Shown in pieces: positions 11,533 to 26,127 of a stretch of 64,000 bases of DNA. This DNA is from an uncultured Eubacteriales bacterium (GTDB lineage Bacteria; Acidobacteriota; Aminicenantia; Aminicenantales; UBA8522), in contig CAYUKK010000005.1 of the NCBI GenBank assembly GCA_964445305.1, forward strand, positions 6,614 through 70,613. Direction: 5' to 3'. The notes under the pieces were generated by a model. That model had not been told where the DNA came from. It did no database searches and worked only from the letters and a program-made list of their open reading frames with translations. The position numbers and the translations under genes were made by a program. Positions within the stretch are counted from its first letter, which is position 1. Each line of letters starts with the position of its first letter.

Positions 11533-12285
11533 TTATTCGATGTCTCGAGCGTAGTATCTCTTCTTGAGCTCGTCTTTTTTCAAGGCCATCAGCTCCTTGT
11601 ATTCCCTGTCGAATTTCTTCTGGCGGATTTCCTTAATTCTCTGCTCGAGCTCAGGGCTTTTCTTGGCCAGATACCGGCCATAGAGCCTCTTGGCCAGCAG
11701 GCCGACGTTGTAATGGACAATCTCCGCTGGGCAGCGGATAGCACACAGCCCGCAGCAGAGGCAGTCGAAGGAAAGGTCCATGACCTTTTCGATGTCGCCT
11801 CGAATGGCGGCCTGGATGTAATCCATCACCTCCAACCCCTGGGGGCAGGCCTTAGTGCAGGTGTTGCAGGCGACGCAGCGAAAGATCTCCGGGTAGAGCT
11901 TCTGGAAAGCCGTGACGTTCGGCTCCAGCTTCTCGATGTCGTAGACAGGCTTCTGGGCCGGGATGACGGGAAGCTGGGAAAGCCACATGCCTTCCTGGAC
12001 GAGGGTGGTGCAGGCGAGGCCGGTATAGATTTTGTAATCCCCGGGGAGGCGATAGACGGTCGCGCAAGCCCCGCAAAAGCCTTCCCGGCAGCCAGCGCCC
12101 CGCTTGATCTGATAGCCGGCGTATTCGATGGCCCCCATGATGGTGGCCTCAGCCGGAACCTTATGGGCCTTGCCCATGATGTAGACGGTGACCATTTTCT
12201 TGGGGGGTTCAGCTGGCTCGGCCTTCTTTTTCATCGGCCGTACCGGCTTGGCATCTCTTCTCGGTGTCGCTTTCTTTTTAGCCAT
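11533..12285 (-). CDS. SdhB/FrdB-type iron-sulfur subunit (2Fe-2S plus two Cys-cluster motifs) with a Lys-rich N-terminal tail
   Basis: 250 aa. GCREGFCGACAT...LAC (2Fe-2S), then CVACNTCTKACP and CLCCGLCAIRCP. Strong SD (GGGAAGGAGA) before ATG 12285. Basic tail MAKKKATPRRDAKPVRPMKKKAEPAEPPKK. Confidence 0.7.
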   Translation of the reverse strand: MAKKKATPRRDAKPVRPMKKKAEPAEPPKKMVTVYIMGKAHKVPAEATIMGAIEYAGYQIKRGAGCREGFCGACATVYRLPGDYKIYTGLACTTLVQEGMWLSQLPVIPAQKPVYDIEKLEPNVTAFQKLYPEIFRCVACNTCTKACPQGLEVMDYIQAAIRGDIEKVMDLSFDCLCCGLCAIRCPAEIVHYNVGLLAKRLYGRYLAKKSPELEQRIKEIRQKKFDREYKELMALKKDELKKRYYARDIE

Positions 12286-12321: not shown

Positions 12322-13146
12322 TCAGTATTCTTGCGGCAACTTCTTGAGCTCCGCCCAGGAATAGACGGGACCGTCCTTGCAGACATAGTGCTGGCCGATG
12401 TTGCAACGGCCGCACTTGCCGATACCGCATTTCATTTTGTTTTCCACGGTCGTGTAAATTTGGTTATCGGCGAACTTGAGGTCCTGAAGCGCTTTGATGA
12501 CGAACTTGATCATAATGGGAGGGCCGCAGGTGATGGCGATGGTGTTGGAAGGATCGGGCTTCTTGTCCAAGACGTTCTGGGGAACGAACCCGACGAACTC
12601 TGTCCATTCTGGCTCGGCCACGTCGATAGACAAATGGACAGTCATCTGCTTCTTCAAGTCCGCCAGCTCCTCCTTAAAAACAATATCCTTCGACGTCCTG
12701 GCGCCGTAGATAAGGGTGAGCTCGCCGTATTCTTCCTTCTTGGCCAGGGCAGTCTGGAGCACAGACCAAATGGGAGCCAGGCCGATACCGCCGCCAATAA
12801 AGACCAGGTTTTTCCCCGTCCATGCTTCAACGGGAAAGCCGTTGCCATAGGGGCCGCGAATGCCGACCAAGTCGCCGACTTCCATCTCGTGGAGGGCCGT
12901 AGTTACCCTCCCCATCTTCAAGATGCTGAACTGGAGGTAGTCCTTAACAAGGGGGGAAGAGGAGATGGAGATCATGCTCTCACCCTTGCCAAAGACGGAA
13001 AGCATGGCGCACTGGCCACAGCGGTGGCTGAAGCCGTCGCCGTTGACGAAGACAGTCCGGAATGTCTTGATCGCCCTCGCCCCTCCCACTTCTTCCTTGA
13101 TATGGATGATCTTGGCCAGCTTGGGGATGTAGACGTTAGGCTCCAT
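12322..13146 (-). CDS. FAD/NAD(P)H-binding oxidoreductase with C-terminal 2Fe-2S (sulfhydrogenase gamma HydG / AsrB / PyrK-like; FlxA-like)
   Basis: 274 aa. GIRGPYGNGFP and LVFIGGGIGLAPIWS (NAD(P)-binding). C-terminal CGIGKCGRCNIG. Confidence 0.7.
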   Translation of the reverse strand: MEPNVYIPKLAKIIHIKEEVGGARAIKTFRTVFVNGDGFSHRCGQCAMLSVFGKGESMISISSSPLVKDYLQFSILKMGRVTTALHEMEVGDLVGIRGPYGNGFPVEAWTGKNLVFIGGGIGLAPIWSVLQTALAKKEEYGELTLIYGARTSKDIVFKEELADLKKQMTVHLSIDVAEPEWTEFVGFVPQNVLDKKPDPSNTIAITCGPPIMIKFVIKALQDLKFADNQIYTTVENKMKCGIGKCGRCNIGQHYVCKDGPVYSWAELKKLPQEY

Positions 13147-14191
13147 GGTTGCTTACCTTGTCCAGGACTTTGATGATGTCGATCCCAACCGGGCAGAGGC
13201 TGATGCAACGGCCGCAGCCCGTGCACATAACCTGGTCAAAATTCTCGACAAAATAGCGAAATTTATGGAGAACCCTCTGGCGAAGACGCGACGCCTTGTC
13301 CGGTCGGGGGTTGTGGCCGGAAGAATGCATGGTGAAATCGGGGAATTGGCAGTTGTCCCATGTCCGAACCCTCTTGCCGCGCAAGGGGGATATGGAGTCG
13401 ACTTCGTCGTTGATGTCAAAGCAATGGCAGGAAGGACAGAGATAGGTGCAGATGCCGCACTGGATGCAGCTCATCGATTCCTCATCCCAGAGAGACGAAT
13501 CGAACAGGCCCTGGAGAGCTGCGGCCCTCTCCTTTTTCGTCCCCTTGACCCCGCGGACGAGCTTTTTCCTCGCTTCGGCGTGCCTGGCCTGGACTTTCTT
13601 CTTGTCGTCCGGTTGGGGCTCTTTGAAGAGTTCTCTCGCCGCCTGGACGAGCTTTTCTCCGTTGGTCGAAAGGGTTTTTACATAATAGCTATCCCCTAAG
13701 TCGGTGAGCAAGATGTCAAGCCCTTCTTCGCCGTGGGGTGAACCCTCGACGGAAAGGCAAAAGCAATTCTCCCAGGGCGGCGTGTGGCAGGCCAAACCGA
13801 TGAGCGAAGCTTGGCTCCGACGCTTCCAGTAGTAAGGGTCGGTAAAGTCGCCGCCAAAAACTCTATCCAGGAGCCAGATAGCCCGGGCATCGCAGGGCCG
13901 GACGCCGAAAATAACGAATGGCTTGCCGTTGGGCAAGACTTCTCTGACCTCAAGGGTCTCGCGATTCCCCTCGATTGTTTTCGAGAATTCGAGGAAGACT
14001 TCGCGCTGAGGAAAGATAAGCGCTTTGGCCGGAAGTGTGGTTACGGCAAGCTCGAGGCTGGCGGGGGCATGGTCGATGATTTCGTAATTCCAGCGTTCGT
14101 TTTCATCTTTTCTCGGCGCATAAACCGTCCAAGCATTGAGCTTTTCCATCCACAGAGGCAAGGACTTTTTTTCAAGTATCTTGTCCATCAT
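13136..14191 (-). CDS. iron-sulfur oxidoreductase, sulfhydrogenase beta (HydB) / AsrA-like (FlxB-like)
   Basis: Start placed at MMDKILEKK (RBS GGAG...AGGT). CIQCGICTYLCPSC and CTGCGRCISLCP motifs. Overlaps the neighbouring hydG-like gene. Confidence 0.62.
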   Translation of the reverse strand: MMDKILEKKSLPLWMEKLNAWTVYAPRKDENERWNYEIIDHAPASLELAVTTLPAKALIFPQREVFLEFSKTIEGNRETLEVREVLPNGKPFVIFGVRPCDARAIWLLDRVFGGDFTDPYYWKRRSQASLIGLACHTPPWENCFCLSVEGSPHGEEGLDILLTDLGDSYYVKTLSTNGEKLVQAARELFKEPQPDDKKKVQARHAEARKKLVRGVKGTKKERAAALQGLFDSSLWDEESMSCIQCGICTYLCPSCHCFDINDEVDSISPLRGKRVRTWDNCQFPDFTMHSSGHNPRPDKASRLRQRVLHKFRYFVENFDQVMCTGCGRCISLCPVGIDIIKVLDKVSNHGA

Positions 14192-14192
14192 C

Positions 14193-15221
14193 TTACCTGA
14201 TGAAATCTCCAGGGTCATCGTCTTTGAAGGAGGATATGAGCGGCGGCTGGGCGGGGTCGAAGCCAACCTCGTAGCCGAAGAGCTCCTTGGCCTCCTTTTC
14301 CAGCTTCTTGTTGAGAAAGCGAAGGGGAATATCCAGCGGACAGGCCCTTTCGCATTCACCGCAGTCGATGCATCGGCCAGCCAGATGAATGGCCCGAACG
14401 AGGTGGTAGACGAAATTCTCGGATGACTCGGCTGACCTCTGGATCCACTTCACCTTGTGGGCTTTTTCCTCAGCCGTCGTGTCGGCTGTGACAGCCAGGT
14501 TGATGCTGTCGACGACGCATTCATCGCAGTAACACATCGGACAAACCGACCGACAGGCATAGCAACGGATGCACTTGTCGAGTTGCTCTTTCCAGAAACG
14601 CCACCTTTCTTCCTGGCCGAGCGCTTCTATTTTCTCGACGGACCCGAAGGGCTTGTCCACCGCCTTCCTGGTTTTTTCGCCCGCCAGGATGTCGTAGAGG
14701 ACTGGAAAGTTGGCCTGGCATTCCAGGCAACGCTCGGCCAGGAGCTCCTCGACCGGGAATTCGACCTTTCCGTCCGCCGTCGTGATGAGGAACCGGTCGG
14801 CGGCCAGCTCGATTTTCTTGGGTTTTTTCCCTCCCAGCTTTCGGGCAAGCTTGTGGTCATCGATGACGCCGGCTTTCTCGCAAGAAACGCCGAGGACGTA
14901 GATATCCTGACGGTCGATGAATTTTTCTTGGAGGAGAACGACGATGGCCCGGCTGTCGCAGCCCTTGACTACTACCCCCACCGGCCTTTTGTCGGGTTGC
15001 TTCTGCCTGGCTTTTCTTCTCTTCTCGTCAACGAGGAAGCGCGCCAGGTTGTGAACGCACGTCGGGTCCCAGACGAGCTTCTCGACATCCTCTGGAGTCT
15101 TGATGAACACGGGAATGGCCTGCCAGCCGTTGCCGCCCGTCCCATAGCCGATGAGGTATTTGATTTTCCCTTCACGCAGGAGCTTCCTCGCCTCCTCCTT
15201 GAGGTCCTCGAAATTAGCCAT
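14193..15221 (-). CDS. FrhB/FdhB-family-like iron-sulfur protein (FlxC-like) with two C-terminal 4Fe-4S ferredoxin motifs
   Basis: Start at MANFEDLKEEARK; its ATG shares one base with the mvhD stop (TGATG). CIRCYACRSVCP and CIDCGECERACP. Confidence 0.5.
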   Translation of the reverse strand: MANFEDLKEEARKLLREGKIKYLIGYGTGGNGWQAIPVFIKTPEDVEKLVWDPTCVHNLARFLVDEKRRKARQKQPDKRPVGVVVKGCDSRAIVVLLQEKFIDRQDIYVLGVSCEKAGVIDDHKLARKLGGKKPKKIELAADRFLITTADGKVEFPVEELLAERCLECQANFPVLYDILAGEKTRKAVDKPFGSVEKIEALGQEERWRFWKEQLDKCIRCYACRSVCPMCYCDECVVDSINLAVTADTTAEEKAHKVKWIQRSAESSENFVYHLVRAIHLAGRCIDCGECERACPLDIPLRFLNKKLEKEAKELFGYEVGFDPAQPPLISSFKDDDPGDFIR

Positions 15222-15643
15222 CAGGGGTTTCTCCTCAATTTTGCCTGGGGACCCAGCGGTTTGAGCTCTTTGACGAAATCCTTGATCACCTGGGTATATT
15301 TGGTGCCCTCGGCAGCCGAGACCCAGGACATCTGGAACCTCTCTGGCTCCAGCCCGATGAACTCCAGGAGTTTCTTGACAAAATAGATGCGCCGCCGGGC
15401 GTAGTAGTTTCCTTTGATGTAATGGCAATCGCCAGGATGGCAGCCCGAGACGAGCACACCGTCAGCGCCCTTATTGAAGGCGGTAAAGATGTAGAGAGGG
15501 GAGACGCTCCCGGAGCACATGACCTGGATGGGGATGACGTTGGGCGGATATTCCATCCGTGATACACCGGCCATGTCGCTCCCGGCCGAGGAACACCACT
15601 TGCACAGAAAAGCAACAATTTTCGGTTCGAATTCCTCCGCCAT
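15221..15643 (-). CDS. mvhD: MvhD / FlxD-like protein (methyl-viologen-reducing hydrogenase delta-subunit family; 2Fe-2S electron-transfer partner of HdrA)
   Basis: Start at MAEEFEPKIVAFLCKWC (ATGA overlap with the hdrA stop). Conserved CKWCSSAG ... VMCSG ... SGCHPGDCHY cysteines. Confidence 0.75.
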   Translation of the reverse strand: MAEEFEPKIVAFLCKWCSSAGSDMAGVSRMEYPPNVIPIQVMCSGSVSPLYIFTAFNKGADGVLVSGCHPGDCHYIKGNYYARRRIYFVKKLLEFIGLEPERFQMSWVSAAEGTKYTQVIKDFVKELKPLGPQAKLRRNP

Positions 15644-15645
15644 CC

Positions 15646-17592
15646 TCAGCCTCCCAGACACGCGCTGATCATATCGTGAACCTGGCTCAAAGTCAGGTTC
15701 TTCACCTGGATGGCCGCCCGCAAGCAGGTGGCCGAGCAGGTTCCGCATCCCTCGCAGAGGACTTCGTTGACCTCTGCTTTATCATCCTTCAAGGCGATCG
15801 CATCATAGGGACAGACTTGGACGCACATCCCGCAGCCTGTGCAGAGGGTGGGGATGACTTTGGCCACGGTTGGGGAGTGGTAGAGTCTCTCCTGGGAGAG
15901 AACAGCCACCGCCTTGGCGGCAGCACCGCTGGCCTGGGCCACGGCCTCAGGGATGTCCTTGGGAGCTTGCGCGGCTCCCGCCAGGAAAACGCCCGAGGTG
16001 ACGCTTTCGACTGGCCGCAGCTTGGGATGCGCTTCCGCCAAGAAGCCGTCCTTGTCCAGGGCCAGTTTGAGCTTCTTGGCCAGTTCTTGGGCTCCTTTGG
16101 CCGGACGCATCGCCTGGGCGAGAACAACCATGTCGGCGGCAATTTCGATGTGTTTGCCCGTCAGCGTATCGACTCCCCAGACTTTGAGCTTGCCCTTATC
16201 TTCGAAAACCTTCGACACTTTGCCCCGCAGGTAGACGACGCCATCCTCTTCGATGGCTCTCTGGACAAATTCCTCGTAGCCTTTGCCGCCAGAGCGGATG
16301 TCAATGTAAAAGACGTACGCTTGTCCGTCATGGACATGATGCTTGTAGAGCATGGCGTGCTTGGCTGTATACATGCAGCAGATTTTGGAGCAGTAAGCGC
16401 AGTGGTTTTCAGGGTCACGCGAGCCCGAGCACTGGATGAAGACGACTTCTTTGGGTTCCTTGTGGTCAGAGGGACGGAGAATCTGGCCTCTCGTGGGGCC
16501 TGACGCAGAGCAAAGTCGCTCGAACTGAAGCCCGTCGAGAACATCAGGGTACTTCCCGTATCCATATTCGGCCATGTTCTCTTTATCATAAAGGTCATAG
16601 CCAGTGGCCACGATAATCGCCCCCACTTCTTCTTCGATGATTTGTGGCTTCATATCATAGTCAATGGCCTTGGCCTCACAGACGTCGGCGCACTTGCCGC
16701 AGGCGATGGGCAAAAGGCCGGGGCACGCGTTGATGTCGAGGGTGTAGGAAGCCGGAATGGCTTGAGGAAAGGGGATATAAATGGCTCTTCTTCCCGTCAG
16801 CCCGAGTTCAAACTCGCTGGGGACAACGATGGGGCAGACCTTCGTGCACTCATCGCAGAGGTTGCACTTATCGGGGTCGACGTAAGTCGGCTTCTTCAGG
16901 ATCTTGACTTTGAAATTGCCCACATACCCGGAGACATCCTGGACTTCGCAGTAGGTCATCAGCCTGATTTTTGGATGCTTGGAAGCCTCGACCATTTTGG
17001 GAGTAAGGATGCACTGGGAGCAATCCAGGGTGGGGAAAGTCTCGGAAAGCTGGATCATATGGCCGCCGATGGAGGGGCTTTTCTCCACGAGAATGACGTC
17101 AAACCCGCTATTGGCCAAATCAAGAGAAGCCTGGATGCCGGCAATCCCCCCGCCGATGACAAGGGCCTTGCGCGTCACGGGGACGCTGACGGCCTCGAGG
17201 GATTCATTCCGATGGACTTTTTCTACAGCGCTCTTGGTGATTTTGATGGCTTTCTGGGTGGCTTTGTCTTTTTCCTTGTGGACCCAGCTACATTGCTCCC
17301 GGATGTTGGCAATTTCGCAACGATAGGCATTCAGTCCAGCCAACCCCGAAGCCTTGCGAAAGGTTGTCTCGTGGAGAGTCGGCGAGCAGCAGGCGACGAC
17401 GACGTTGCTTAATTTTTTCTCTTTGATAGCCTGGACAATGAGGTTTTGCCCCGGGTCCGAGCACATGTAGACATAATCCTCGGCATGAACAACACCGGGA
17501 TGTTTGATGAGCTCCTGAGCGACTTTCTTGACATCCACTGTACCGGCGATATTGATGCCGCAGTGGCAGACAAAAACTCCTGTGCGTTTCAT
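15646..17592 (-). CDS. hdrA: heterodisulfide reductase subunit A (FAD, multiple Fe-S clusters)
   Basis: 648 aa. Near-colinear with methanogen HdrA: GVFVCHCGINIAGTVD, VIGGGIAGIQASLDLANSGF, CNLCDECTKVCP, FIQCSGSRD, and C-terminal CTGCGMCVQVCP / CEGCGTCSATC. Confidence 0.88.
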   Translation of the reverse strand: MKRTGVFVCHCGINIAGTVDVKKVAQELIKHPGVVHAEDYVYMCSDPGQNLIVQAIKEKKLSNVVVACCSPTLHETTFRKASGLAGLNAYRCEIANIREQCSWVHKEKDKATQKAIKITKSAVEKVHRNESLEAVSVPVTRKALVIGGGIAGIQASLDLANSGFDVILVEKSPSIGGHMIQLSETFPTLDCSQCILTPKMVEASKHPKIRLMTYCEVQDVSGYVGNFKVKILKKPTYVDPDKCNLCDECTKVCPIVVPSEFELGLTGRRAIYIPFPQAIPASYTLDINACPGLLPIACGKCADVCEAKAIDYDMKPQIIEEEVGAIIVATGYDLYDKENMAEYGYGKYPDVLDGLQFERLCSASGPTRGQILRPSDHKEPKEVVFIQCSGSRDPENHCAYCSKICCMYTAKHAMLYKHHVHDGQAYVFYIDIRSGGKGYEEFVQRAIEEDGVVYLRGKVSKVFEDKGKLKVWGVDTLTGKHIEIAADMVVLAQAMRPAKGAQELAKKLKLALDKDGFLAEAHPKLRPVESVTSGVFLAGAAQAPKDIPEAVAQASGAAAKAVAVLSQERLYHSPTVAKVIPTLCTGCGMCVQVCPYDAIALKDDKAEVNEVLCEGCGTCSATCLRAAIQVKNLTLSQVHDMISACLGG

Positions 17593-18212
17593 GGCTTACC
17601 CTTCTTGGCTTTAGCTGGAGCGAGCTTGGCCGTCGGGGTTTCTGCCTTTTCTTCAACCTGCGGTTGACCCGTCTGGCGCAGCTGTTCCAGGCCATAATCG
17701 TAACCTCTCTCGAAGGCTCGGATATTTAATTCTAAGAATCTCTTGGGGACAAGGCCAGGTAACGCCTTTTTCATCGCCTCGGGTGTGACGGCCTTCGTTA
17801 TCGCCGTGAAGAACCCGAGCATCACCAAATTGGCAAAAATCCGGTTGCCCATTTCTTCGGCGAAGCGGGTCGCGGGAATGCTGAAGACTTTGATCTTGGC
17901 CCGAGGAGGACGGATTTTGACGAGGTCCGTGTCGATGATGAGGATGCCGTCTTCCCTCAATTCGGGCTCGTATTTTTCATAGGCATCCTGGGACATAGCC
18001 ACCAAGATTTCTGGCCGAGTGATGTAGGGATAAAGAACGCGGTCATCAGAAATGACGAGCTGGGAGCTGCAGGCGCTTCCCCTTGCCTCGGGTCCGAAGC
18101 TCTGAGTCATCGTGCCGTATTTATTATCAAACAGGGAAACCGCTTTGCCGGTGATGAGGCCGCAGCGGATGATTCCCTGCCCGCCGTATCCAGAGAAACG
18201 AATTTCTTTCAT
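17589..18212 (-). CDS. 2-oxoacid:ferredoxin oxidoreductase gamma subunit
   Basis: 207 aa. MKEIRFSGYGGQGIIRCGLITGKA is the POR/KOR gamma hallmark. 4-nt overlap with the hdrA start. Confidence 0.8.
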   Translation of the reverse strand: MKEIRFSGYGGQGIIRCGLITGKAVSLFDNKYGTMTQSFGPEARGSACSSQLVISDDRVLYPYITRPEILVAMSQDAYEKYEPELREDGILIIDTDLVKIRPPRAKIKVFSIPATRFAEEMGNRIFANLVMLGFFTAITKAVTPEAMKKALPGLVPKRFLELNIRAFERGYDYGLEQLRQTGQPQVEEKAETPTAKLAPAKAKKGKP

Positions 18213-18215
18213 GGC

Positions 18216-19079
18216 TCACTCTCCATAGGGCTGATATTTATCGCCCAGGACTTTCTTCAAATGGGTATTCATGCATTCCAGGAAAGTCGGTTTTTCTCGG
18301 TCGATGAACTTACCGACAATAATCTTGCCCTGGTAGCTGATGTCCAGAGTGCGCGTATCCGCGCCGTGCTGGATGTCCGAATTCTCGTAGTAATACTTGA
18401 GGAGGTTGAGGCCGTCGCCGAGACGGTTACGGCGGGCGTAGAGGGTGACGCAGGGGGTGATGACCTCGATGAAGGAGAAACCCTTCTTGGCCAGGGCTTC
18501 CTGAATGGATTTAGTTACCCGCCGCAAGTGGAGTGCCGTCCAGCGAGCGACATAAGTAGCGCCACAAGCATCGGCTAAGTAAGGAAGATTGAAGGGATAT
18601 TCATAGTTCCCGTAGGGAGCGGTGGAAAGGTTAGCCTGGATGGGGGTGGTCGCGGCCACCTGGCCGCCGGTCATCGCGTAATTGAAATTATTGACGCAAA
18701 TGACCAGTATGTCCATGTTCCGCCGGGCGGCATGGATGAAGTGATTGCCGCCAATGCCAACAATGTCTCCATCACCGCTGAAGACAACGACCTTGAGCTC
18801 AGGGTTGCCCAGCTTCAAACCTGTGGCGAAGGGAATAGGCCGGCCATGGGTGGTGTGGAAAGAATCGAGTCGGACATAGCCGGCCACTCTCCCCGTGCAG
18901 CCGATGCCCGAAACGATAGCCACCTTATCCAGGTTAATGTTGCTCTTGCGCAGGGCGCTAGCAAAGGAGCTAACGACCGTTCCGATGCCGCATCCCGGAC
19001 ACCAGATGTGAGGAATCCGGTCCATGCGCAAGAATTCTTCCATCGGGTTTCTTTCTTCGAGCCGATCCTCTTCCCTCAT
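18216..19079 (-). CDS. 2-oxoacid:ferredoxin oxidoreductase beta subunit (TPP-binding)
   Basis: 287 aa. WCPGCGIG...GIGCTGRV...FSGDGD TPP motif. ATGA overlap with the alpha-subunit stop. Confidence 0.85.
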   Translation of the reverse strand: MREEDRLEERNPMEEFLRMDRIPHIWCPGCGIGTVVSSFASALRKSNINLDKVAIVSGIGCTGRVAGYVRLDSFHTTHGRPIPFATGLKLGNPELKVVVFSGDGDIVGIGGNHFIHAARRNMDILVICVNNFNYAMTGGQVAATTPIQANLSTAPYGNYEYPFNLPYLADACGATYVARWTALHLRRVTKSIQEALAKKGFSFIEVITPCVTLYARRNRLGDGLNLLKYYYENSDIQHGADTRTLDISYQGKIIVGKFIDREKPTFLECMNTHLKKVLGDKYQPYGE

Positions 19080-20242
19080 CGAGCTGCCTCCTTGATTGCT
19101 TTTAAAATATCATTAGGGTCATGGACCCAGCCGCCGCAGTGGGGAACACCGATGGCCGGCGCTTGGCCGAAAGCGCAGCGTTCAACCTCACGACGAATTT
19201 GGCCGAGGTTGATTTCCGGAACGACAAAAGCCTTGATTTTTTTTGCCAGTTCCCTTATCCGTTCCTCGGGGAAGGGCCAGACGGTGATCAACCGGAGTGT
19301 GCCAACTTTGATGCCCGCCTTTCTCGCTTCCTGGATCGCCTTAACAGCCACTCGCGAGGTGATCCCGTAGGAGACGACCACTACTTCAGCGCCATCTGTC
19401 TCTTCTTCCCTGTATTCAATGATTTTGTGGGCGTTTTTTCGGATTTTATCGTTGATGTGTCGGACGCACCAATCCTGGCATTCGGCGTTGATGATGGGGT
19501 AGCCTCTTTCATCGTGGGTTAAGCCGGTCGTGTGGAAACGGTAGCCATCGCCGGCTTTAACCATAAACGGCACGAGGTCTTTGTCCGGCTTGTAGGGTCG
19601 GTACTTATCCTTGGGGCCCTCATACCATTTTCTCTCTACGACCTCAATTTCGTCAGCGGGGGGAATGACAACTTTCTCGTGCATATGGCCGACGCACTCG
19701 TCGGTCATGAGGAATGTCGGCACTCGATACATTTCCGAGAGGTTGAAAGCCTTGATGGTCAGGTCGAAACACTCCTGCGGCGAATCAGGGGAGAGGGCGA
19801 TGATTTCGTAGTCGCCGTGAGAGCCCCATCTGACCTGCATCATGTCCGCTTGGCCTGTCAGAGTCGGCAGCCCCGTCGATGGGCCTCCTCGCTGGACGTT
19901 GGCGATGACGATGGGGACTTCCATCATGGCGGCGAGGCCGATGTTTTCCATCATTAAGGAAAAACCGGGTCCAGAAGTGACGGTCATGGATTTTACGCCA
20001 GCCCATGAGGCTCCGATGAGGGCGGCGACAGAGGCAATTTCGTCCTCCATCTGGATGAAAACTCCACCCACGTAGGGGATTCTTTCGGCGAATCTTTCCG
20101 CCGTTTCGGTCGAGGGGGTAATGGGATAGCCGGCGAAAAAGCGGCAACCGGCAGCTAAGGCTCCCTCGGCGATGGCAAAATCGCCGTCGAGGTAATGGGC
20201 GCCGGTGAGAACACCCTTAGGATCGGCTTTCACTTTTTTCAC
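19076..20242 (-). CDS. 2-oxoacid:ferredoxin oxidoreductase alpha subunit
   Basis: 388 aa. VLTG...AIAEGALAAGCRFFAGYPITPSTE and FLMTDECVGHMHEKV. Confidence 0.85.
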   Translation of the reverse strand: MKKVKADPKGVLTGAHYLDGDFAIAEGALAAGCRFFAGYPITPSTETAERFAERIPYVGGVFIQMEDEIASVAALIGASWAGVKSMTVTSGPGFSLMMENIGLAAMMEVPIVIANVQRGGPSTGLPTLTGQADMMQVRWGSHGDYEIIALSPDSPQECFDLTIKAFNLSEMYRVPTFLMTDECVGHMHEKVVIPPADEIEVVERKWYEGPKDKYRPYKPDKDLVPFMVKAGDGYRFHTTGLTHDERGYPIINAECQDWCVRHINDKIRKNAHKIIEYREEETDGAEVVVVSYGITSRVAVKAIQEARKAGIKVGTLRLITVWPFPEERIRELAKKIKAFVVPEINLGQIRREVERCAFGQAPAIGVPHCGGWVHDPNDILKAIKEAAR

Positions 20243-20492
20243 CTTCTTCCTCCTCTTTCATGAGAGTCACGTAGAGGGCAAATTCTGGGCAGATGGCCTC
20301 GCAAAGCTGGCAATAGCAGCAGTTTTCTTCGTGGACAATGCGGGGCGGGTGATAGCCTTTTCGGTTGAATTCCTCAGAAAGCTCAAGGACATCGCGGGGA
20401 CAATACTCAACGCAAAATCCGCATCCCTTGCAGCGTTCTCTATCGATGTGGATCTTGCCCTTTTTCGGTTTGAGGTCACCAAAATAAACCAT
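20217..20492 (-). CDS. 4Fe-4S dicluster ferredoxin, delta subunit of the four-subunit oxidoreductase
   Basis: Start at MVYFGDLKPKK (SD GAGAGGAAAC). CKGCGFCVEYCP and CCYCQLCEAICP. Confidence 0.7.
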   Translation of the reverse strand: MVYFGDLKPKKGKIHIDRERCKGCGFCVEYCPRDVLELSEEFNRKGYHPPRIVHEENCCYCQLCEAICPEFALYVTLMKEEEEGEKSESRS

Positions 20493-20500
20493 GTTTCCTC

Positions 20501-21382
20501 TCACATCAAGCTTTTTTCGACGAGCAAAGGCTTGGGGTCAATATAATGGAGGTCGAGACGCAAATCTTTCTCCGCGCAGCCGAGCGCCATAGCCAGGAGT
20601 TGAGTGAAATAGAGAACGGGCATCGTCTTGAATTCGGGATACAAGCGAGCTGTCTCTTTCTGCCGGTGGTCAAGGTTAAAAGCGCAAAGAGGGCAACTGA
20701 CAGCCACGACTTCGGCACCCTGCTCGCGAGCCGAGTTGAGGATCCTGTAAGTCCGCTCGGCCACCACCTCCGGCTTGTCGACTGTCTGGTAAGAAGCGCA
20801 GCATTCGGTCTTGTAAGGGAAGTCGACGGGCTGAGCGCCCAGAGCGGCCATCAGGTGTTCTAAAATCATCGGGTTCTCGGGATCATCGAGGCCAATTTCT
20901 TTGGGGCGGACGAGGAGGCAACCGTAGTAGCTGGCGACCTTCAGGCCCCTTAGGGGCCGCCGGACCTTCTGGGCGATCGTGTCCAGCTTGATGTCGTCGC
21001 GGAGAAGCTCGAGAAGATGGCGGATGCGGATATCCCCAGCATAGGCGATTTTCTCCTCATCCATGAACTTGTGGATTTTCGTCAAACTCTCCGGGTCGGC
21101 CTTGATTCTTTCATTGACTCTTTTGAGGGTGTTGTAGCACATCGCACAGAGGGTGAGGACGGAATCCGAGCCGCTTTCTTTAACCCGGATGAGGTTACGG
21201 ATAGAAGCAAGATGATGGATCAGGTCATCAGCAGCTAAGGAGTAAACCGTGCCGCAGCAGTTCCAGCGCTTGAGCTCTTCGACCTCAAGGCCGAGCTCTT
21301 TTAGGGAGCATAATGTCGAATCTTCAAAATTCTTAGCATTGCTCTTCAGAGTGCAGCCCGGATAATAACTTATTTTCATCAT
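20501..21382 (-). CDS. hdrB: HdrB-like CCG-domain protein (two cysteine-rich CCG domains; the second reads CCAS)
   Basis: 293 aa. YYPGCTLKS...RWNCCGTVYS...LCAMC and YYGCLLVRP...ECCASYQ...CPLCAF. Confidence 0.78.
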   Translation of the reverse strand: MMKISYYPGCTLKSNAKNFEDSTLCSLKELGLEVEELKRWNCCGTVYSLAADDLIHHLASIRNLIRVKESGSDSVLTLCAMCYNTLKRVNERIKADPESLTKIHKFMDEEKIAYAGDIRIRHLLELLRDDIKLDTIAQKVRRPLRGLKVASYYGCLLVRPKEIGLDDPENPMILEHLMAALGAQPVDFPYKTECCASYQTVDKPEVVAERTYRILNSAREQGAEVVAVSCPLCAFNLDHRQKETARLYPEFKTMPVLYFTQLLAMALGCAEKDLRLDLHYIDPKPLLVEKSLM

Positions 21383-21423: not shown

Positions 21424-21831
21424 TTACGAAGTGAACTTACGGAAATTGCTGATGAGGGCAATCGGTGGAACGCTCGCTTTTTCCTCATCGGAGAGCTCAC
21501 GCACCTCAACATGATCGCATCGCTTGCGGAGCAGAATCTGACGAACGGCTTCCATGACCTCAGCGATCTTGATGCCCTTTGGGCAACGCACATTGCATGT
21601 ATAGCAGGAAGCGCAGACCCAAACGGATCGAGATTGAAGGAGCTCATCTTTTAGGCCAAGCTGAGCGAACCGGATAATTTGGTTGGGCAAAATGTCCATC
21701 TGGGAAACAGCCGGACAGCCGGCCGAACACTTGCCGCACTGGTAGCAGGCCAGAAGTTTTTGGCCGCTCAATTCCTCCACTTTTTCAACAAAACTATCCC
21801 TAATCTTTTTCTTGGATAGGGTAACTCTCAT
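21424..21831 (-). CDS. hdrC: HdrC-like 2x[4Fe-4S] subunit
   Basis: CYQCGKCSAGCP and CASCYTCNVRCP. ATG at 21831 (MRVTLSKKK) is preferred over the GTG at 21849. Confidence 0.75.
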   Translation of the reverse strand: MRVTLSKKKIRDSFVEKVEELSGQKLLACYQCGKCSAGCPAVSQMDILPNQIIRFAQLGLKDELLQSRSVWVCASCYTCNVRCPKGIKIAEVMEAVRQILLRKRCDHVEVRELSDEEKASVPPIALISNFRKFTS

Positions 21832-21956
21832 TGTTATTTCTCTTTCCACCCCAAAAATTCAAGTTGGCTTGGTTTTGATGCATTTTCCTGGCCAAAAATG
21901 ACCCTTCAGTAAACCACAATTTGAATTTGCTGTCAAGAAAATCAGGAGGTGAAGTG

Positions 21957-24128
21957 CTAATGCCCCCCAAAAAACAGAAGAAGAAAGAGACACATGAGGT
22001 TGAGCAAGAAGATGCTTATCAAAACGAAAGGCAAGCCCGTCAGAGGGATGAGCAAGGTGCTCGTGAGCAAAGCCCCTCCAAAAGAACCGAGAAGGTCCAG
22101 CCCGTAGCCGAGACCGTAATCGGCTTTGGATTTAAGATAGAGCTGGTTCGAGACAATGAAGAGGTCGCCTCCCAGATAACCCAGGGCGAAGAGGATGAGA
22201 AAAGCCAGAACCTCGGGCGGTCTTGCCCGCATCATTATTAGGAAAACGAGAAGAAGGAAAAGAAATCCAGCCTGGATAAGAGCCAACTGGCGGAAGGAGA
22301 AACTCCGTTTTTTCGACCTGACCCAGCTTCCTATATAAAGCCCGAGCATAAAAATGGAGAGGAGGAGGGCAATAGCGCCATAAAGGTATCCATAAAGAGC
22401 TTGAAACCAGACGAGGAGGATGATTTCTGTGATGATCGTCGTAAAACCCATGACGGCCAAGGGGACAAGCGGCAATGGACTTTTCTTCTTCCGGATGAGC
22501 AGCCAAACGGAAACAAGGCAAAAAAAGGCCAGGGGGAGAGTAAGAAGCCAGAGGGGAGAGAGTTGGGAGAAATACTTGAGGCCCTTGACTTCGAGACCGC
22601 GGAAATGCGCGCTCCAGAGCATGATCTGGAAATAGAAACTGATGGGGGCCAAGTCCGTGTTGACCCGGCTCTGTCTCGATTTCATCGCTGTCTCCAGTCG
22701 GTCGCGGCGCAGAGGATGGAGCCGGGATAAAAGAGAAGAGCGAGTGAAATACAGGGTCTCGAGGCCAAGGGCTTCCACCCTTTGGGCGAGCACTTCAGGC
22801 TCCACCTGAATCGACTCCGAGGAGCCAAGGAAAACATTCCTGGCGCCAGGAATGACTTCGACATGGGGAAAGACTTCTTTCAGGGTGTGGTAAAGAGAAG
22901 CTAAGAATAGCTCCAGCTCGCCTCCGATGTAGTCTTCCGCCGAGGCGACAATGAAGGAGAGAACCCCAGCTGAAGTGAGCTTTCTCTTGGCCAGGCGGAA
23001 GAATTCAAGGGTATAAAATCGATTGAGTTGGGCCGTGCTGGGATCGGGCAAGGAAATGAGAATGCCATCGTAGGAATTGTCGGCCTTTTGGAGGAAAGCG
23101 CGTCCATCCTCAAAGAAAAGATGAACCCGGGCGTCGCTCAAGGCCCTTTTTTCTTCTTCAGGGAGGAAGAGCCTGGAGAGTTGGATTACTTCCGGGTCGA
23201 GTTCGACATAATCGACCCGGGCTATGGGGTATTTGAGGATCTCCATCAACGTTCCTCCAGCCCCGCCGCCAATGAGGAGGATTCTTTCAGCTTCCGGTTT
23301 CTGAAGGAGGGCGAAATGGACAGATTCTTCAGCCGAAGCCCGATCAGGATGGGAATAAACAGGCGCGCTATTGCTATAAAGAGAGGTCTGTTCCTCGGTC
23401 TTGATGACCTGAAGCTTTCCGTACCGGGTGTCCCGGCTGGCCAGAAGATGGTAGGGCCGCCAGTAAAGCCTTTGTGTGGGCATATCGAGAAAGATGAACA
23501 CGGTGAGAACAAGTGTCAGAAGAGCCGGGATAACCAGCCTTTTCTTTTTGTCGACGAGCGAAAAGAGAAGCCACGTCCCCGCTCCTCCAATTAAGGCGGC
23601 TGCCTGCCAGGCACTGAAATGGGGCAGGAAGAGAAAATAGACCGTTAGCCCGGCGATGGTGGCTCCCAGTGATTCGAGCCTGTAAACGTCGTTGATTCGT
23701 CCGGAAGCTTTCCCAACGTTGAGGACAAAGAGCATTCCGAGAGGGAAACTGACGAGAAGACAGAGGCCGAAAGAAAGCCCGAGGACGGGCAGGAGGCCTA
23801 TGAGTTCACCTGGGAGGACCCGCATGATGAAACGGAAAACCCGCACCCCGGCCAGAGAAAGGACGATAAAAAAGATGACCCCATAATAGATTTGGGAGAG
23901 GTTTTTTTGAAGGAAAGACCAGCGGGAAGCAAGAATGCTTCCCAAGCCCCCCCAGAGGAGCCAGGATGCCAAGACGACCCCGAAGGTCAGCTCATTGCCG
24001 TAGAAATGGGCACTGAACTCCCGAAGGAGGAGAATCTGGGAGGAGGTTGCCAAAAATCCCAGGAGAAAAGGGGGGAAGGAATCCTTTAAGCCCAGATTCC
24101 AGGGATGGGGTTTTGGCAGAAGCGGCAT
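21957..24128 (-). CDS. polytopic membrane protein with a central spermidine-synthase-like (SpeE / class I MTase-fold aminopropyltransferase) domain
   Basis: 723 aa with many predicted TM helices at both ends. Central ILLIGGGAGGTLMEILKYP...VDYVELDPEVI...LISLPDP matches the SpeE-fold dinucleotide motif. Confidence 0.6.
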   Translation of the reverse strand: MPLLPKPHPWNLGLKDSFPPFLLGFLATSSQILLLREFSAHFYGNELTFGVVLASWLLWGGLGSILASRWSFLQKNLSQIYYGVIFFIVLSLAGVRVFRFIMRVLPGELIGLLPVLGLSFGLCLLVSFPLGMLFVLNVGKASGRINDVYRLESLGATIAGLTVYFLFLPHFSAWQAAALIGGAGTWLLFSLVDKKKRLVIPALLTLVLTVFIFLDMPTQRLYWRPYHLLASRDTRYGKLQVIKTEEQTSLYSNSAPVYSHPDRASAEESVHFALLQKPEAERILLIGGGAGGTLMEILKYPIARVDYVELDPEVIQLSRLFLPEEEKRALSDARVHLFFEDGRAFLQKADNSYDGILISLPDPSTAQLNRFYTLEFFRLAKRKLTSAGVLSFIVASAEDYIGGELELFLASLYHTLKEVFPHVEVIPGARNVFLGSSESIQVEPEVLAQRVEALGLETLYFTRSSLLSRLHPLRRDRLETAMKSRQSRVNTDLAPISFYFQIMLWSAHFRGLEVKGLKYFSQLSPLWLLTLPLAFFCLVSVWLLIRKKKSPLPLVPLAVMGFTTIITEIILLVWFQALYGYLYGAIALLLSIFMLGLYIGSWVRSKKRSFSFRQLALIQAGFLFLLLVFLIMMRARPPEVLAFLILFALGYLGGDLFIVSNQLYLKSKADYGLGYGLDLLGSFGGALLTSTLLIPLTGLPFVLISIFLLNLMCLFLLLFFGGH

Positions 24129-25207
24129 TTACCGTTTTCCAGCTCGATTTTTTCGACGTCGAAACCAAGACGCCGGATGATGAGGTTCTGGCAGCGCGGG
24201 CAGTACGTGTGCTCACCCATGTGGCCGGGGACATTCCCAATGTAAACATAATTGAGGCCTTCTTCCCTGGCCACATTCCGGGCTTTCTCCAGAGTCGACA
24301 CCGGAGTGGGAGGGAGGTTCTTGATGAGATACATGGGGTGAAAACGGGAGAAGTGGAGGGGAATATCGGGTCCAACCTCCTTCCTGATCCACCGACACAT
24401 GGCCCGAATTTGTTCCATGTCGTCGTTGAGCTGGGGAATGACCAGGTAGACAAGCTCCAGCCAGACTTGGCTCTGGCGGACGATCTTGATCGCCTCGAGG
24501 ACGGGCTTGAGCTCTCCCCGGACATAGGTCTTATAGAATTCCTCCGAGTAAGCCTTGAGGTCAATCTTAATAGCTTCCACGACTTTGGTCAGGTCGAGGA
24601 GGGGCTCAGGGCTGATGTGCCCACCGGTGACGACACAGTTTTTAATTTTATGACGACGGGCCTCGATGGATGTGTCGTACATGTACTCAAAGAAAACGAT
24701 GGGTTCTGTGTAGGTATAAGAAATGGATGGACAATCGAACTTGAGGGCGGCGTTGACGACAGCGGTGGGGGGTAAATCGAAATGGCGGACTTGCTCAGGC
24801 CGGACCTGGGAGATTTGCCAGTTCTGGCAGAACTTGCAGTTGACATTGCAGCCAGCCGTAGCGATGGATAGGGATTTCGTTCGCGGCAAAAAATGGAAGA
24901 AAGGCTTTTTCTCGATGGGGTCGACGTTCATCGTGCAGGCTTTCCCATAAACGAGCGTGTAATAAATGCCCCCATCGTTTTCCCGGACACCGCAATAGCC
25001 CCGCTCCTTGTCACCGAGGCGGCAGAGTCGGGGGCAGAGTAAGCATTCGATTTCCCTGTCCGGGAGTTTCTTATAGTATCGGGCCTCGACTCGAGAGAGG
25101 TTGGGCTCGGCTTGGAAAGCGAAAAGGTTCCACAACGATTCTCCTGTTCCTGAACCCAAAAGCAAGCTCGAACCGGCCAGAGTCTTGACGAAATTCCTCC
25201 TCTTCAT
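24086..25207 (-). CDS. AmmeMemoRadiSam-system-type radical SAM enzyme (AmrS-like) with an N-terminal twin-arginine (Tat)-like signal
   Basis: 373 aa. ECLLCPRLCRLGDKERGYCGVRENDGGIYYTLVYGK...VDPIEKKPFFHF...AGCNVNCKFCQNWQISQ (CX3CX2C). N-terminus MKRRNFVKTLAGSSLLLGSGTG...AFQA. Confidence 0.72.
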   Translation of the reverse strand: MKRRNFVKTLAGSSLLLGSGTGESLWNLFAFQAEPNLSRVEARYYKKLPDREIECLLCPRLCRLGDKERGYCGVRENDGGIYYTLVYGKACTMNVDPIEKKPFFHFLPRTKSLSIATAGCNVNCKFCQNWQISQVRPEQVRHFDLPPTAVVNAALKFDCPSISYTYTEPIVFFEYMYDTSIEARRHKIKNCVVTGGHISPEPLLDLTKVVEAIKIDLKAYSEEFYKTYVRGELKPVLEAIKIVRQSQVWLELVYLVIPQLNDDMEQIRAMCRWIRKEVGPDIPLHFSRFHPMYLIKNLPPTPVSTLEKARNVAREEGLNYVYIGNVPGHMGEHTYCPRCQNLIIRRLGFDVEKIELENGKCRFCQNPIPGIWA

Positions 25208-25230
25208 GAGTAGCCTACCGTTTAATATTA

Positions 25231-26127
25231 TTATACCTCATCCTCAAGAATTTGTATTTCCTTGAGGCTGGCCACTCCGAGCCCCATTTTTTCAGCTGTC
25301 GATAGGTATTCGGGCTTTCGCCTTTCTTCCTCGAGGGAGGGAAGCCCTTTGCGGGCGCGAAGATCTTCGATCACCCGCCAGCCGACCGAATCGGCCGCTA
25401 CCGGGTCGACAGCAAAAATGAGCATCCCGCACGGTTCGGCCCACTGAGCATGGAAGCTCGGACCCCGGTGATACTGGACACGGAGAGCATCGAGGATGGA
25501 AAGTCGGTGCTTGTTCTTTATGGGCGGGGTGTCGAACAGTTCCGCCACATAAGGATTGCAGTGGGCATCGTGGTATTTGTTTGGATTATGGATGGCGCCG
25601 AAGTAATTCTTCAGGCTGGCCGTGATACCCGCCAAACCATGGTCTTTGAGGATAGCCAGGCTGATCGAAGCCGTGACAAAGTTAGTCTGGATGGTCGAGA
25701 AAAGGCTGCCGATATTGGCGTGGGAAATGAGCTCTGTTTCGTAGCCAGCTCCTTCTGTGTCGGTGGCGAAAACCTTAAGCCGTTGACTGTCCAGGCTTAG
25801 CCGGAAGCCAGCTTCACGAAGTTCCCGATTGCTCCTGTCCCAGATGATGATATTTTTTTCCTGCAGACCCGACCTCGTCAGCAGGGTTACGAGGGCGAGG
25901 CAGACTTCGGGCCGAGTCGAAAGAAGCCGGCCAGCAATCGTGTTGATCTTGATGCCGACTCTATCCGAAGGCTTAAAGACCAGGCGCAGCGCTTCCTTGG
26001 CCTCATGGGAGCCAAAGAGTCGCGACAGGCCGCGCTCGACCATCAAAGCCACCTGGGAAGGGTTGAGCTCACCAGCGGCGCTGAGCACCCCGGGGCTGCG
26101 GATAACGGCGACTCGAGTTGGCTTCAT
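25231..26127 (-). CDS. DUF362-family protein
   Basis: 298 aa. RVAVIR...FKPSDRVGIKINT...TRPEV...IIIWDRS is the DUF362 pattern. Confidence 0.55.
   Translation of the reverse strand: MKPTRVAVIRSPGVLSAAGELNPSQVALMVERGLSRLFGSHEAKEALRLVFKPSDRVGIKINTIAGRLLSTRPEVCLALVTLLTRSGLQEKNIIIWDRSNRELREAGFRLSLDSQRLKVFATDTEGAGYETELISHANIGSLFSTIQTNFVTASISLAILKDHGLAGITASLKNYFGAIHNPNKYHDAHCNPYVAELFDTPPIKNKHRLSILDALRVQYHRGPSFHAQWAEPCGMLIFAVDPVAADSVGWRVIEDLRARKGLPSLEEERRKPEYLSTAEKMGLGVASLKEIQILEDEV

Follow-up and report, generated by a model that had tools for sequence, protein, structure and literature searches.

A 64,000-nucleotide (64-kb) stretch of contig CAYUKK010000005.1 (assembly GCA_964445305.1), hereafter the window, encodes a complete 2-oxoacid:ferredoxin oxidoreductase (OFOR; korDABC) within a block of 13 same-strand genes (21831–9853) in the order hdrC-hdrB-korDABC-hdrA-flxD-flxC-flxB-flxA-tfrB-tfrA. 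On balance, we favour the interpretation that the four OFOR genes form one module of a flavin-based electron-bifurcating system built around HdrA and encoded by this 13-gene operon. Directly observed are the gene content, the cofactor motifs, the operon-like packing and the fact that the modules recur together; of these, synteny that survives reshuffling is the strongest computational evidence for functional coupling, which is well supported because the Kor, Hdr and Tfr partners stay together through repeated rearrangement across two domains of life. The cluster type and a functional proposal for it have already been published for tubeworm symbionts, and Aminicenantes are a new host lineage. 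Coordinates are those of the window throughout, and all cluster genes lie on its minus strand.

Conservation, reshuffling and overlaps of the gene cluster

Two samples were surveyed: a KorA-seeded scan of one genome per species (80 loci, KorA identity 47–77%; tblastn with the 13 window proteins) and an HdrA-seeded scan of metagenome contigs (80 loci, identity 48–88%). An Hdr, MvhD or Tfr-like gene stood directly beside korDABC on the same strand at 13 of 80 loci in the first scan, and kor genes were present at 18 of 80 loci in the second, fractions that describe the samples and are not censuses. HdrA lay within 10 kb in 15 of the 80 KorA-seeded loci, and the hosts with linkage included Rhodocyclaceae, Planctomycetota, Verrucomicrobiota, Fraserbacteria, Woeseia, Bathyarchaeia and Thermoplasmata. 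The full 13-gene order is kept in three Aminicenantes relatives whose KorA is 84–93% identical to that of the window (L001, assembly GCA_029907205.1, and L082 and L083); the best 120 KorA matches are 83–97% identical, and the named ones are Candidatus Aminicenantes or Aminicenantales, which makes an Aminicenantes bacterium the very probable source of the window. Elsewhere the same parts are arranged differently: hdrCB-korDABC-hdrA-flxD-tfrBA in L002; hdrB-korDABC-hdrA-flxDCBA, then aclB, in L005 (Rhodocyclaceae metagenome-assembled genome (MAG), JBNKCS010000001.1, 8780–19249); korDABC-hdrA-flxD-hdrCB-tfrBA in Fraserbacteria (L049); tfrBA-korDABC-hdrA-hdrA'-hdrCB in Thermoplasmata (L057, L071, L072); and korDABC-hdrCBA-flxD in Bathyarchaeia (L041), with further order variants in Planctomycetota, Verrucomicrobiota and Woeseia. 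The HdrA scan returned hdrCB-hdrA-flxD-tfrBA-korDABC (L089, L090, L093), hdrCB-hdrA-korDABC-tfrBA-flxD (L116) and hdrA-flxD-korDABC (L149, L158, L160), together with some 40 loci of plain hdrCBA-flxDCBA and nine of an OFOR-less hdrBC-hdrA-flxDCBA-tfrBA (L122, L132, L135, L137, L144, L152, L154, L157, L163). Several of these nine come from human gut assemblies, and the Kor-less Flx-Hdr-Tfr layout seems to be common in gut anaerobes.

Proteins of the Rhodocyclaceae cluster L005 are 51–82% identical to those of the window (KorA 73%, HdrA 71%, FlxD 82%), whereas KorA is 64–68% identical to its counterparts in Acidobacteriaceae of the same phylum, which have no Hdr neighbours. In a neighbour-joining KorA tree, built with no bootstrap, the KorA of the window is placed with that of L002 and next with the Rhodocyclaceae KorA of the reductive tricarboxylic acid (rTCA) type, not with Acidobacteriaceae, and one half of the tree holds every Hdr-linked KorA. 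The similarity to Rhodocyclaceae, exceeding that of KorA to Acidobacteriaceae, suggests that the cluster moves horizontally as a unit. An alternative interpretation is that a kor operon of the ordinary kind came by chance to stand within an hdr/flx cluster to which it has no functional tie, and 4-nucleotide (nt) overlaps, which are common here and prove nothing alone, would be compatible with it; but we regard chance adjacency as effectively refuted by synteny and its probability as negligible, given that the association recurs with differing gene orders in ten or more bacterial and archaeal lineages of phylum rank, that every sampled HdrA at least 62% identical to that of the window stands in a Kor and/or Tfr cluster, and that the Rhodocyclaceae cluster is closer to the window's than KorA is to that of same-phylum Acidobacteriaceae.

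A sequence-only reading of this DNA had argued instead from gene overlaps. It described a complete OFOR in delta-alpha-beta-gamma order between an hdrB-like gene and hdrA, in which alpha/beta and gamma/hdrA share ATGA-type overlaps and delta overlaps alpha by about 26 nt, and this description is accurate: Pfam and NCBIfam matches identify all four subunits, each intact, in that order, domain matches and single-base reading place them between hdrB and hdrA, and the overlaps hold at single-base resolution and are seen also in L001. Read base by base along the minus strand (hdrB, korD, korA, korB, korC, hdrA), the hdrB stop codon (TGA, 20503–20501) is followed by the korD ATG (20492), which begins 8 nt further on and is preceded by GAGGAA. 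The korA gene begins at GTG 20242, with GGAGG 6 nt upstream, and overlaps korD by 26 nt; an alternative in-frame start, GTG 20233, would still give an overlap of 17 nt. Start 19079 of korB lies within CGATGAGG, a true ATGA overlap with AAGGAGG upstream; a 3-nt gap separates the korB stop from the korC start (18212); and the hdrA start (17592) falls within CCATGAAA, which is likewise an ATGA overlap. Independent gene calls in L001, a 93%-identical relative, give the same starts and the same overlaps.

The further step, from overlaps to stoichiometric co-translation and thence to a physical complex, is not borne out: ATGA overlaps are routine and the gamma/hdrA overlap is lineage-specific. At least five other same-strand gene pairs in the window share a 4-nt start/stop overlap (starts 4600, 28514, 34208, 42923 and 59057), including sensor kinase/response regulator and SPFH/SPOR pairs, for which there is no reason to expect a complex. 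All 13 genes are in order in L082 and L083 (KorA 84–85% identical), which retain the 26-nt delta/alpha and the ATGA alpha/beta overlaps and have korC/hdrA gaps of 8 nt and 39 nt, respectively. The 4-nt korC/hdrA overlap recurs in Rhodocyclaceae, Woeseia and Fraserbacteria MAGs; it is neither universal nor diagnostic. In the window and in L001 it exists because a C-terminal KorC tail, an extra 20–24 residues that is low in complexity and rich in Lys, Ala and Pro (residues 175–207, window 17592–17690, ending in EEKAETPTAKLAPAKAKKGKP), runs into the hdrA start. The tail is absent from L082 (KorC of 187 amino acids (aa)), L083 (183 aa), L002 and L005, and as a docking element it was rejected as a general feature, being missing in four relatives with gene order kept. 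It is thus the gene neighbourhood, not the overlaps, that exceeds chance. The preference for a complex over chance adjacency stands only in its second half: adjacency to Hdr is not accidental, judging from synteny, but no computed result shows a physical complex, and a physical Kor–Hdr complex is unproven. The sequence-only reading was probably correct in concluding functional coupling; its argument from overlaps was weak and overreached on stoichiometry and on a physical complex.

Packing is tight across the whole unit, of which that reading had covered only a part; flxDCBA and the fumarate-reductase-like pair extend it. All gaps within the 13 genes are at most 41 nt (hdrC/hdrB 41 nt, hdrA/flxD 2 nt, flxC/flxB 1 nt, flxA/tfrB 36 nt, tfrB/tfrA 12 nt), and several genes overlap, among them flxD and flxC, whose stop and start share 1 nt in TGATG, and flxB and flxA, by 11 nt. 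A consensus scan returned no intergenic terminator-like site on the coding strand within the block, and the promoter-like matches inside it (5, against 6.0 expected by shuffling) all fall within genes.

Subunits, cofactor motifs and substrate

In NCBIfam, Kor/OGOR/Oor models far outscore POR, VOR and IOR models for all four OFOR subunits. KorA (Pfam POR_N, 244 bits, and PFOR_II, 78 bits; YPITP at residue 39) passes PRK08659 with 569 bits against a cutoff of 411 and scores 386 bits with the OorA-type PRK09627, compared with 296 for VorB, 116 for PorA and 72 for IOR. KorB (TPP_enzyme_C, 111 bits; GDGD at residue 102 and VNN at residue 129) scores 229 bits with the OGOR-beta model PRK09628 versus 66 for VOR and 63 for POR, and its C27, C30, C61 and C210 align with the proximal-cluster cysteines C19, C22, C53 and C202 of H. 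pylori OorB. KorC has a POR domain (PF01558, 117 bits), and KorD, with CxxCxxCxxxCP motifs at residues 21 and 58, has OGOR_delta as its best NCBIfam match. The cutoffs specific for 2-oxoglutarate are missed by all four subunits (bits/cutoff: PRK09627, 386/579; PRK09628, 229/364; OGOR_delta, 75/125; OorC, 92/216). By family score, the enzyme would belong to the Kor/OGOR branch to the exclusion of the POR, VOR and IOR branches, but it is not a certified OGOR equivalog, only the generic alpha model passing its cutoff. The statement that the substrate could not be read from the sequence was therefore too pessimistic with respect to the branch and sound in that strict 2-oxoglutarate specificity is unproven.

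Genomic context makes 2-oxoglutarate the likely substrate of KorDABC. The OFOR might instead act on another 2-oxoacid (pyruvate, branched-chain or aromatic) or have broad specificity, in which case the cluster would serve a different pathway; the sole model above cutoff, that for alpha, indeed bears the generic name '2-oxoacid:acceptor oxidoreductase', and the closest solved alpha chain, 1yd7 (393 bits), is likewise generically named. We consider this very unlikely because models of the Kor/OGOR type win for all four subunits, because H. pylori OorA (8ys5) and OorB score 291 and 202 bits whereas the M. acetivorans PFOR alpha chain scores only 58, and because the enzyme recurs beside a fumarate-reductase-like pair and, in Proteobacteria, beside ATP-citrate lyase. 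The best-scoring solved relatives, H. pylori OorDABC (8YS5, PMC12307629) and the 2-ketoacid:ferredoxin oxidoreductase alpha chain of Pyrococcus furiosus (1YD7), share the subunit set, YPITP, the thiamine pyrophosphate (TPP) motif, the proximal-cluster cysteines and the two delta clusters; these enzymes are encoded by stand-alone operons and use free ferredoxin or flavodoxin, whereas the OFOR of the window lies inside an Hdr/Flx operon.

The Hdr subunits have the domains of a bifurcating-type HdrABC, with scores that do not reach the cutoffs of the methanogen CoB–CoM equivalogs. HdrA residues 3–638 align at 705 bits with 5odc_A, the bifurcating HdrA of Methanothermococcus thermolithotrophicus, and include GGGIAG at residue 147 and four Cys-cluster motifs (best NCBIfam match HdrA2, 834.6 bits, cutoff 1100). 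HdrB has two Pfam CCG domains (cysteines 10/42/43/79/82 and 155/194/195/230/233) and sub-cutoff NCBIfam matches to HdrB (178 bits, cutoff 345) and to SdhE of methylmenaquinol:fumarate reductase (162 bits). HdrC matches Fer4_8/Fer4_17 in Pfam, with motifs at residues 29 and 73, and HdrC in NCBIfam as its best match (83.6 bits, cutoff 160); its ATG at 21831 agrees with 135-aa calls in L001, L082 and L083. Full-length HdrA, an HdrB with two CCG motifs, an HdrC with two [4Fe-4S] clusters and an MvhD-like adaptor are shared with the methanogen complexes (5ODC, 8RVU, 7BKB), unlike which the window has neither a hydrogenase or formate dehydrogenase donor nor a CoM/CoB context. FlxD also aligns with the MvhD portion at the C-terminus of the HdrA2 model; NCBIfam matches are to sulfhydrogenase beta and AsrA-like proteins for FlxB and to hydrogenase-gamma, AsrB and PyrK-like proteins for FlxA, and the FlxA orthologue in L001 carries NAD_binding_1 and DHODB_Fe-S_bind. 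Domain composition and adjacency point to an FlxABCD module beside hdrABC, for which NADH-coupled bifurcation is predicted.

The second Cys motif in the inserted ferredoxin domain of HdrA is lengthened by 5 residues (C-x7-C), an insertion absent from all five of the solved methanogen HdrAs and typical of the bacterial Flx-type clade; as a Kor-specific signature it was rejected, because 46 of the sampled HdrAs that have no Kor also carry it. In that domain, the loop that separates cysteines 1 and 2 of the second cluster motif (residues 290–305, window 16678–16725), compared across the HdrAs of L001–L163, comes in two classes: C[LP]G..P..C or CLN(x8), which is Kor-linked (kor in 22 of 25 loci, the 3 exceptions on truncated contigs), and C..[FY]..GKC, found in Flx-Hdr loci without Kor (kor in none of about 50). 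This pattern correlates with Kor linkage and is confounded by phylogeny, which alone may explain it.

The fumarate-reductase-like flavoprotein has TfrA as its best NCBIfam match (336.6 bits, cutoff 718) and, aligned with E. coli FrdA, keeps the HPTG, TE, PRD, H and R catalytic positions, in the motifs QYHPTG (324), TE (342), EPRD (365), LHYQNGG (439) and GRNRL (471). At the position of the covalent-FAD residue His44 of FrdA it has Asn, as would be expected of an enzyme that reduces fumarate rather than oxidising succinate; His44 variants of E. coli FrdA have established that non-covalent FAD goes with the reductive direction. Its iron–sulfur (Fe-S) partner, whose start is preceded by the ribosome-binding site GGAAGGAG, matches weakly and only the N-terminal half of TfrB, and a motif and model search found no C-terminal CCG (thiol-oxidising) domain in its 250 aa. 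Methanothermobacter TfrAB shares the flavoprotein family and an Fe-S subunit with [2Fe-2S] and two [4Fe-4S]-type motifs, but Methanothermobacter TfrB has the C-terminal CCG half that the window protein lacks, and the window pair scores far below cutoffs; a thiol-oxidising function would therefore have to come from a separate HdrB. The first 30 residues of the TfrB-like protein (window 12196–12285) form a low-complexity extension rich in Lys, Ala and Pro, MAKKKATPRRDAKPVRPMKKKAEPAEPPKK.

Proposed electron path and alternatives

From these parts we infer an electron path, its direction and its substrate, as well as a choice between docking of Kor on Hdr and a diffusible carrier. FlxABC would oxidise NADH and pass electrons through the MvhD-like FlxD to the FAD of HdrA, whose flavin would split each electron pair. 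The high-potential electron would travel from HdrC through HdrB and TfrB to TfrA, reducing fumarate to succinate in a soluble enzyme with non-covalent FAD, and the low-potential electron would pass from the HdrA ferredoxin domains through KorD to KorB/TPP in KorAB, which would act as a 2-oxoglutarate synthase (succinyl-CoA + CO2 to 2-oxoglutarate). The predicted sum is 2 NADH + fumarate + succinyl-CoA + CO2 → 2 NAD+ + succinate + 2-oxoglutarate + CoA, and a 1:1 electron split would match a linear branch that makes one 2-oxoglutarate per fumarate. Electrons at around −500 mV are required if succinyl-CoA is to be carboxylated reductively; with textbook potentials of about −320, +30 and −500 mV, the sum is estimated to be exergonic by roughly 30 kJ per 2 NADH and its reverse to be unfavourable. 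A bifurcating module could thus pay for the carboxylation with the exergonic fumarate reduction of the same pathway, an economical supply of electrons in anaerobes that is relevant both to the rTCA cycle and to anabolic 2-oxoglutarate synthesis. If this is true, flavin-based bifurcating enzymes would gain a new class, and some of the many orphan bacterial HdrABC homologues a physiological role. Its role in this host is speculative and could be anabolic 2-oxoglutarate/glutamate synthesis through the reductive branch or a succinate-forming electron sink.

Comparable systems support the parts list and differ in how it is assembled. The rTCA cluster of the Escarpia symbiont reads frdB, frdA, hdrC, hdrB, korD, korA, korB, korC, hdrA, flxD, flxC, flxB, flxA, aclB, aclA, idh, and Rubin-Blum et al. 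(2019; PMC6315080) proposed a complex that would bifurcate electrons from NADH, serving 2-oxoglutarate synthase as well as fumarate reductase. Mitchell et al. (2024) reported operon-like co-expression of the cluster in Endoriftia and considered direct transfer and transfer through ferredoxin and a DsrC-like carrier both possible (PMC11636981). The core order hdrC-hdrB-korDABC-hdrA-flxDCBA is identical in the tubeworm symbionts (Ca. Endoriftia, Escarpia symbiont), in Thioflavicoccus mobilis and in the window, with the frd/tfr pair adjacent; but the pair lies upstream of hdrC in the symbionts and downstream of flxA here, and the symbionts are autotrophic gammaproteobacteria with rTCA genes attached, whereas the host of the window is an Aminicenantes-like bacterium with no aclBA, idh, pntAB or rubrerythrin attached to the cluster. 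All seven component types of Desulfovibrio vulgaris FlxABCD-HdrABC (Ramos et al. 2015, as relayed in PMC6315080 and PMC7282089) also occur in the window; relative to the D. vulgaris system as relayed there, the operon has korDABC between hdrB and hdrA and tfrBA added, lacks the alcohol dehydrogenase or DsrC context, and would have succinyl-CoA/CO2 and fumarate as acceptors rather than ferredoxin and DsrC. The Kor-less Flx-Hdr-fumarate-reductase 'succinate operon' of Pseudoclostridium thermosuccinogenes, which has been proposed to bifurcate NADH electrons to fumarate and a low-potential acceptor (PMC7282089 and the preprint by Koendjbiharie and van Kranenburg that it cites), resembles the window in combining Flx-Hdr with a two-subunit soluble fumarate reductase, and its layout is that of the nine OFOR-less metagenome loci; it has no OFOR and is proposed to reduce free ferredoxin, whereas the window operon itself encodes the low-potential partner, Kor. 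The literature examined contains no mention of the cluster in Aminicenantes or the archaeal lineages, although coverage was incomplete and this is weak evidence of absence. What is added here is that the unit is conserved in Aminicenantes, that Kor-Hdr-Tfr recurs rearranged in many uncultivated bacterial and archaeal lineages, that natural variants without the NADH module provide comparison cases, and that more candidate source organisms are available for biochemistry.

Several points weigh against the bifurcating reading. Specificity for 2-oxoglutarate rests on contrasts in family and PDB scores, not on residues, and the complex is still termed 'suggested' in a 2026 review. HdrB keeps both of its CCG motifs, and therefore a thiol/disulfide carrier may intervene between Hdr and Tfr. 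No Kor–Hdr fusion occurs among the long KorA representatives (P0134, P0206, P0149, P0230, P0263), whose fusions all join OFOR subunits to one another (alpha-gamma, delta-alpha(-beta) or gamma-alpha). The flxCBA genes are missing in L002, L089, L090, L093, L049 and the Thermoplasmata loci; NADH is therefore no universal donor, the core may work differently, and the electron donor of these variants may be exchangeable. Finally, the 64-kb window contains no genes for ATP-citrate lyase, succinyl-CoA synthetase, isocitrate dehydrogenase or other TCA/rTCA enzymes, and Aminicenantes are described as fermentative in the title of Kadnikov (2019); carbon fixation is therefore not an evident function, and one in anabolism or fermentation has to be assumed.

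The same parts and the same net reaction could also operate with no supercomplex, Flx-Hdr reducing a diffusible ferredoxin together with a thiol/disulfide carrier, either a small thiol or a DsrC- or TusA-like protein, which would then serve Kor and Tfr; co-location would reflect only co-regulation. This is a real possibility that we nonetheless think doubtful. It would account for the retention of both disulfide-reductase CCG motifs in HdrB, the free reshuffling of module order among lineages is easier to square with separable modules, and the unconserved korC/hdrA overlap, the lack of Kor–Hdr fusions among the long KorA representatives and the TusA and DsrE2-like genes that adjoin tfrA in L001 are all compatible with it, as is the position of Mitchell et al.; but the window operon holds no free ferredoxin or DsrC-like gene, KorD being its only small ferredoxin, and in several distant lineages kor splits hdrB from hdrA instead of being added at an end. 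At the other extreme stands a single Kor-Hdr-FlxD-Tfr megacomplex with an exchangeable FlxABC, one bifurcating flavin and no free carriers, which would perform both C4-to-C5 redox steps as an ancient mobile unit that extends beyond rTCA autotrophs to fermentative or heterotrophic users (Aminicenantes, Planctomycetota, Fraserbacteria, Bathyarchaeia and Thermoplasmata); we offer this joint claim tentatively, as one that may hold but that we would not expect to hold in full.

The direction could also be oxidative, Kor oxidising 2-oxoglutarate (derived, for example, from glutamate or amino-acid fermentation) and feeding low-potential electrons into HdrA, with either fumarate as the outlet (2-oxoglutarate:fumarate oxidoreduction) or confurcation with a second donor to NAD+ through Flx. 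OFORs and Flx-Hdr are reversible in principle, rTCA genes are absent from the window, many hosts of related clusters are presumed heterotrophs (Thermoplasmata, Bathyarchaeia, Aminicenantes), and the variants that lack flxCBA have no obvious mid-potential donor. We nevertheless consider it rather unlikely because confurcating electrons from 2-oxoglutarate and succinate onto NAD+ is estimated to be endergonic with the textbook values (−500, +30 and −320 mV), TfrA does not have the histidine for covalent FAD attachment that efficient oxidation of succinate requires, and direct transfer from 2-oxoglutarate to fumarate would waste about 100 kJ/mol and needs no bifurcating flavoprotein.

Feature coordinates and neighbouring genes

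The genes of the block and the leader that precedes it are listed below.

Table 1. The 13-gene block and its leader, with coordinates in the window.
Feature	Position	Strand	Size and characteristics
Leader 5' of hdrC	21832–21956	−	125 nt; only sizeable non-coding stretch before the 13 genes
Candidate promoter in leader	TTGACA 21936–21931, 17-nt spacer, TGgTTTACT	−	Read from the sequence; not flagged by the consensus scan
hdrC-like	21424–21831	−	135 aa; two CxxCxxCxxxCP (2x[4Fe-4S])
hdrB-like	20501–21382	−	293 aa; two intact CCG motifs
korD (OFOR delta)	20217–20492	−	91 aa; 2x[4Fe-4S] ferredoxin
korA (OFOR alpha)	19076–20242	−	388 aa; POR_N + PFOR_II
korB (OFOR beta)	18216–19079	−	287 aa; TPP_enzyme_C; predicted TPP and proximal [4Fe-4S] binding
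korC (OFOR gamma)	17589–18212	−	207 aa; POR domain at residues 10–172
hdrA	15646–17592	−	648 aa; bifurcating-type: N-terminal, FAD, inserted-ferredoxin and C-terminal ferredoxin domains
flxD/mvhD-like	15221–15643	−	140 aa; Pfam FlpD, 179 bits
flxC-like Fe-S protein	14193–15221	−	342 aa; 4Fe-4S dicluster motifs
flxB-like (HydB/AsrA-like Fe-S subunit)	13136–14191	−	351 aa; Fer4_22
flxA-like, FAD/NAD(P)H + C-terminal [2Fe-2S]	12322–13146	−	274 aa; NCBIfam
tfrB/frdB-like Fe-S subunit	11533–12285	−	250 aa; [2Fe-2S] + 2x CxxCxxCxxxCP
tfrA/frdA-like flavoprotein	9853–11520	−	555 aa; fumarate-reductase catalytic residues

Elsewhere the window has genes for glycine cleavage, glyQS, pyrimidine genes and housekeeping genes. 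In L001, TusA and DsrE2-like genes follow directly after tfrA on the opposite strand (L001 20500–21167), where the window has a PilZ-like gene; their products are possible sulfur/thiol carriers for the HdrB CCG site, and the pair is not conserved in the window. The L002 locus (CAYWDH010000016.1, 8374–17503; KorA 77% identical), a naturally occurring variant that lacks the NADH-input module, shares synteny with the window both upstream (DUF362, radical SAM and spermidine-synthase-like membrane protein genes) and downstream (PilZ, glyS), and its label, 'uncultured Eubacteriales', looks wrong. The upstream trio (window 21957–26127, minus strand) is kept also in L001, L082 and L083 and encodes a DUF362 protein, a radical SAM enzyme of the AmmeMemoRadiSam system (369 bits) and a 723-aa polytopic membrane protein with a spermidine-synthase domain. 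The first 40 or so residues of the radical SAM enzyme resemble a twin-arginine signal (MKRRNFVKTLAGSSLLLGSG), which is unusual in radical SAM enzymes.

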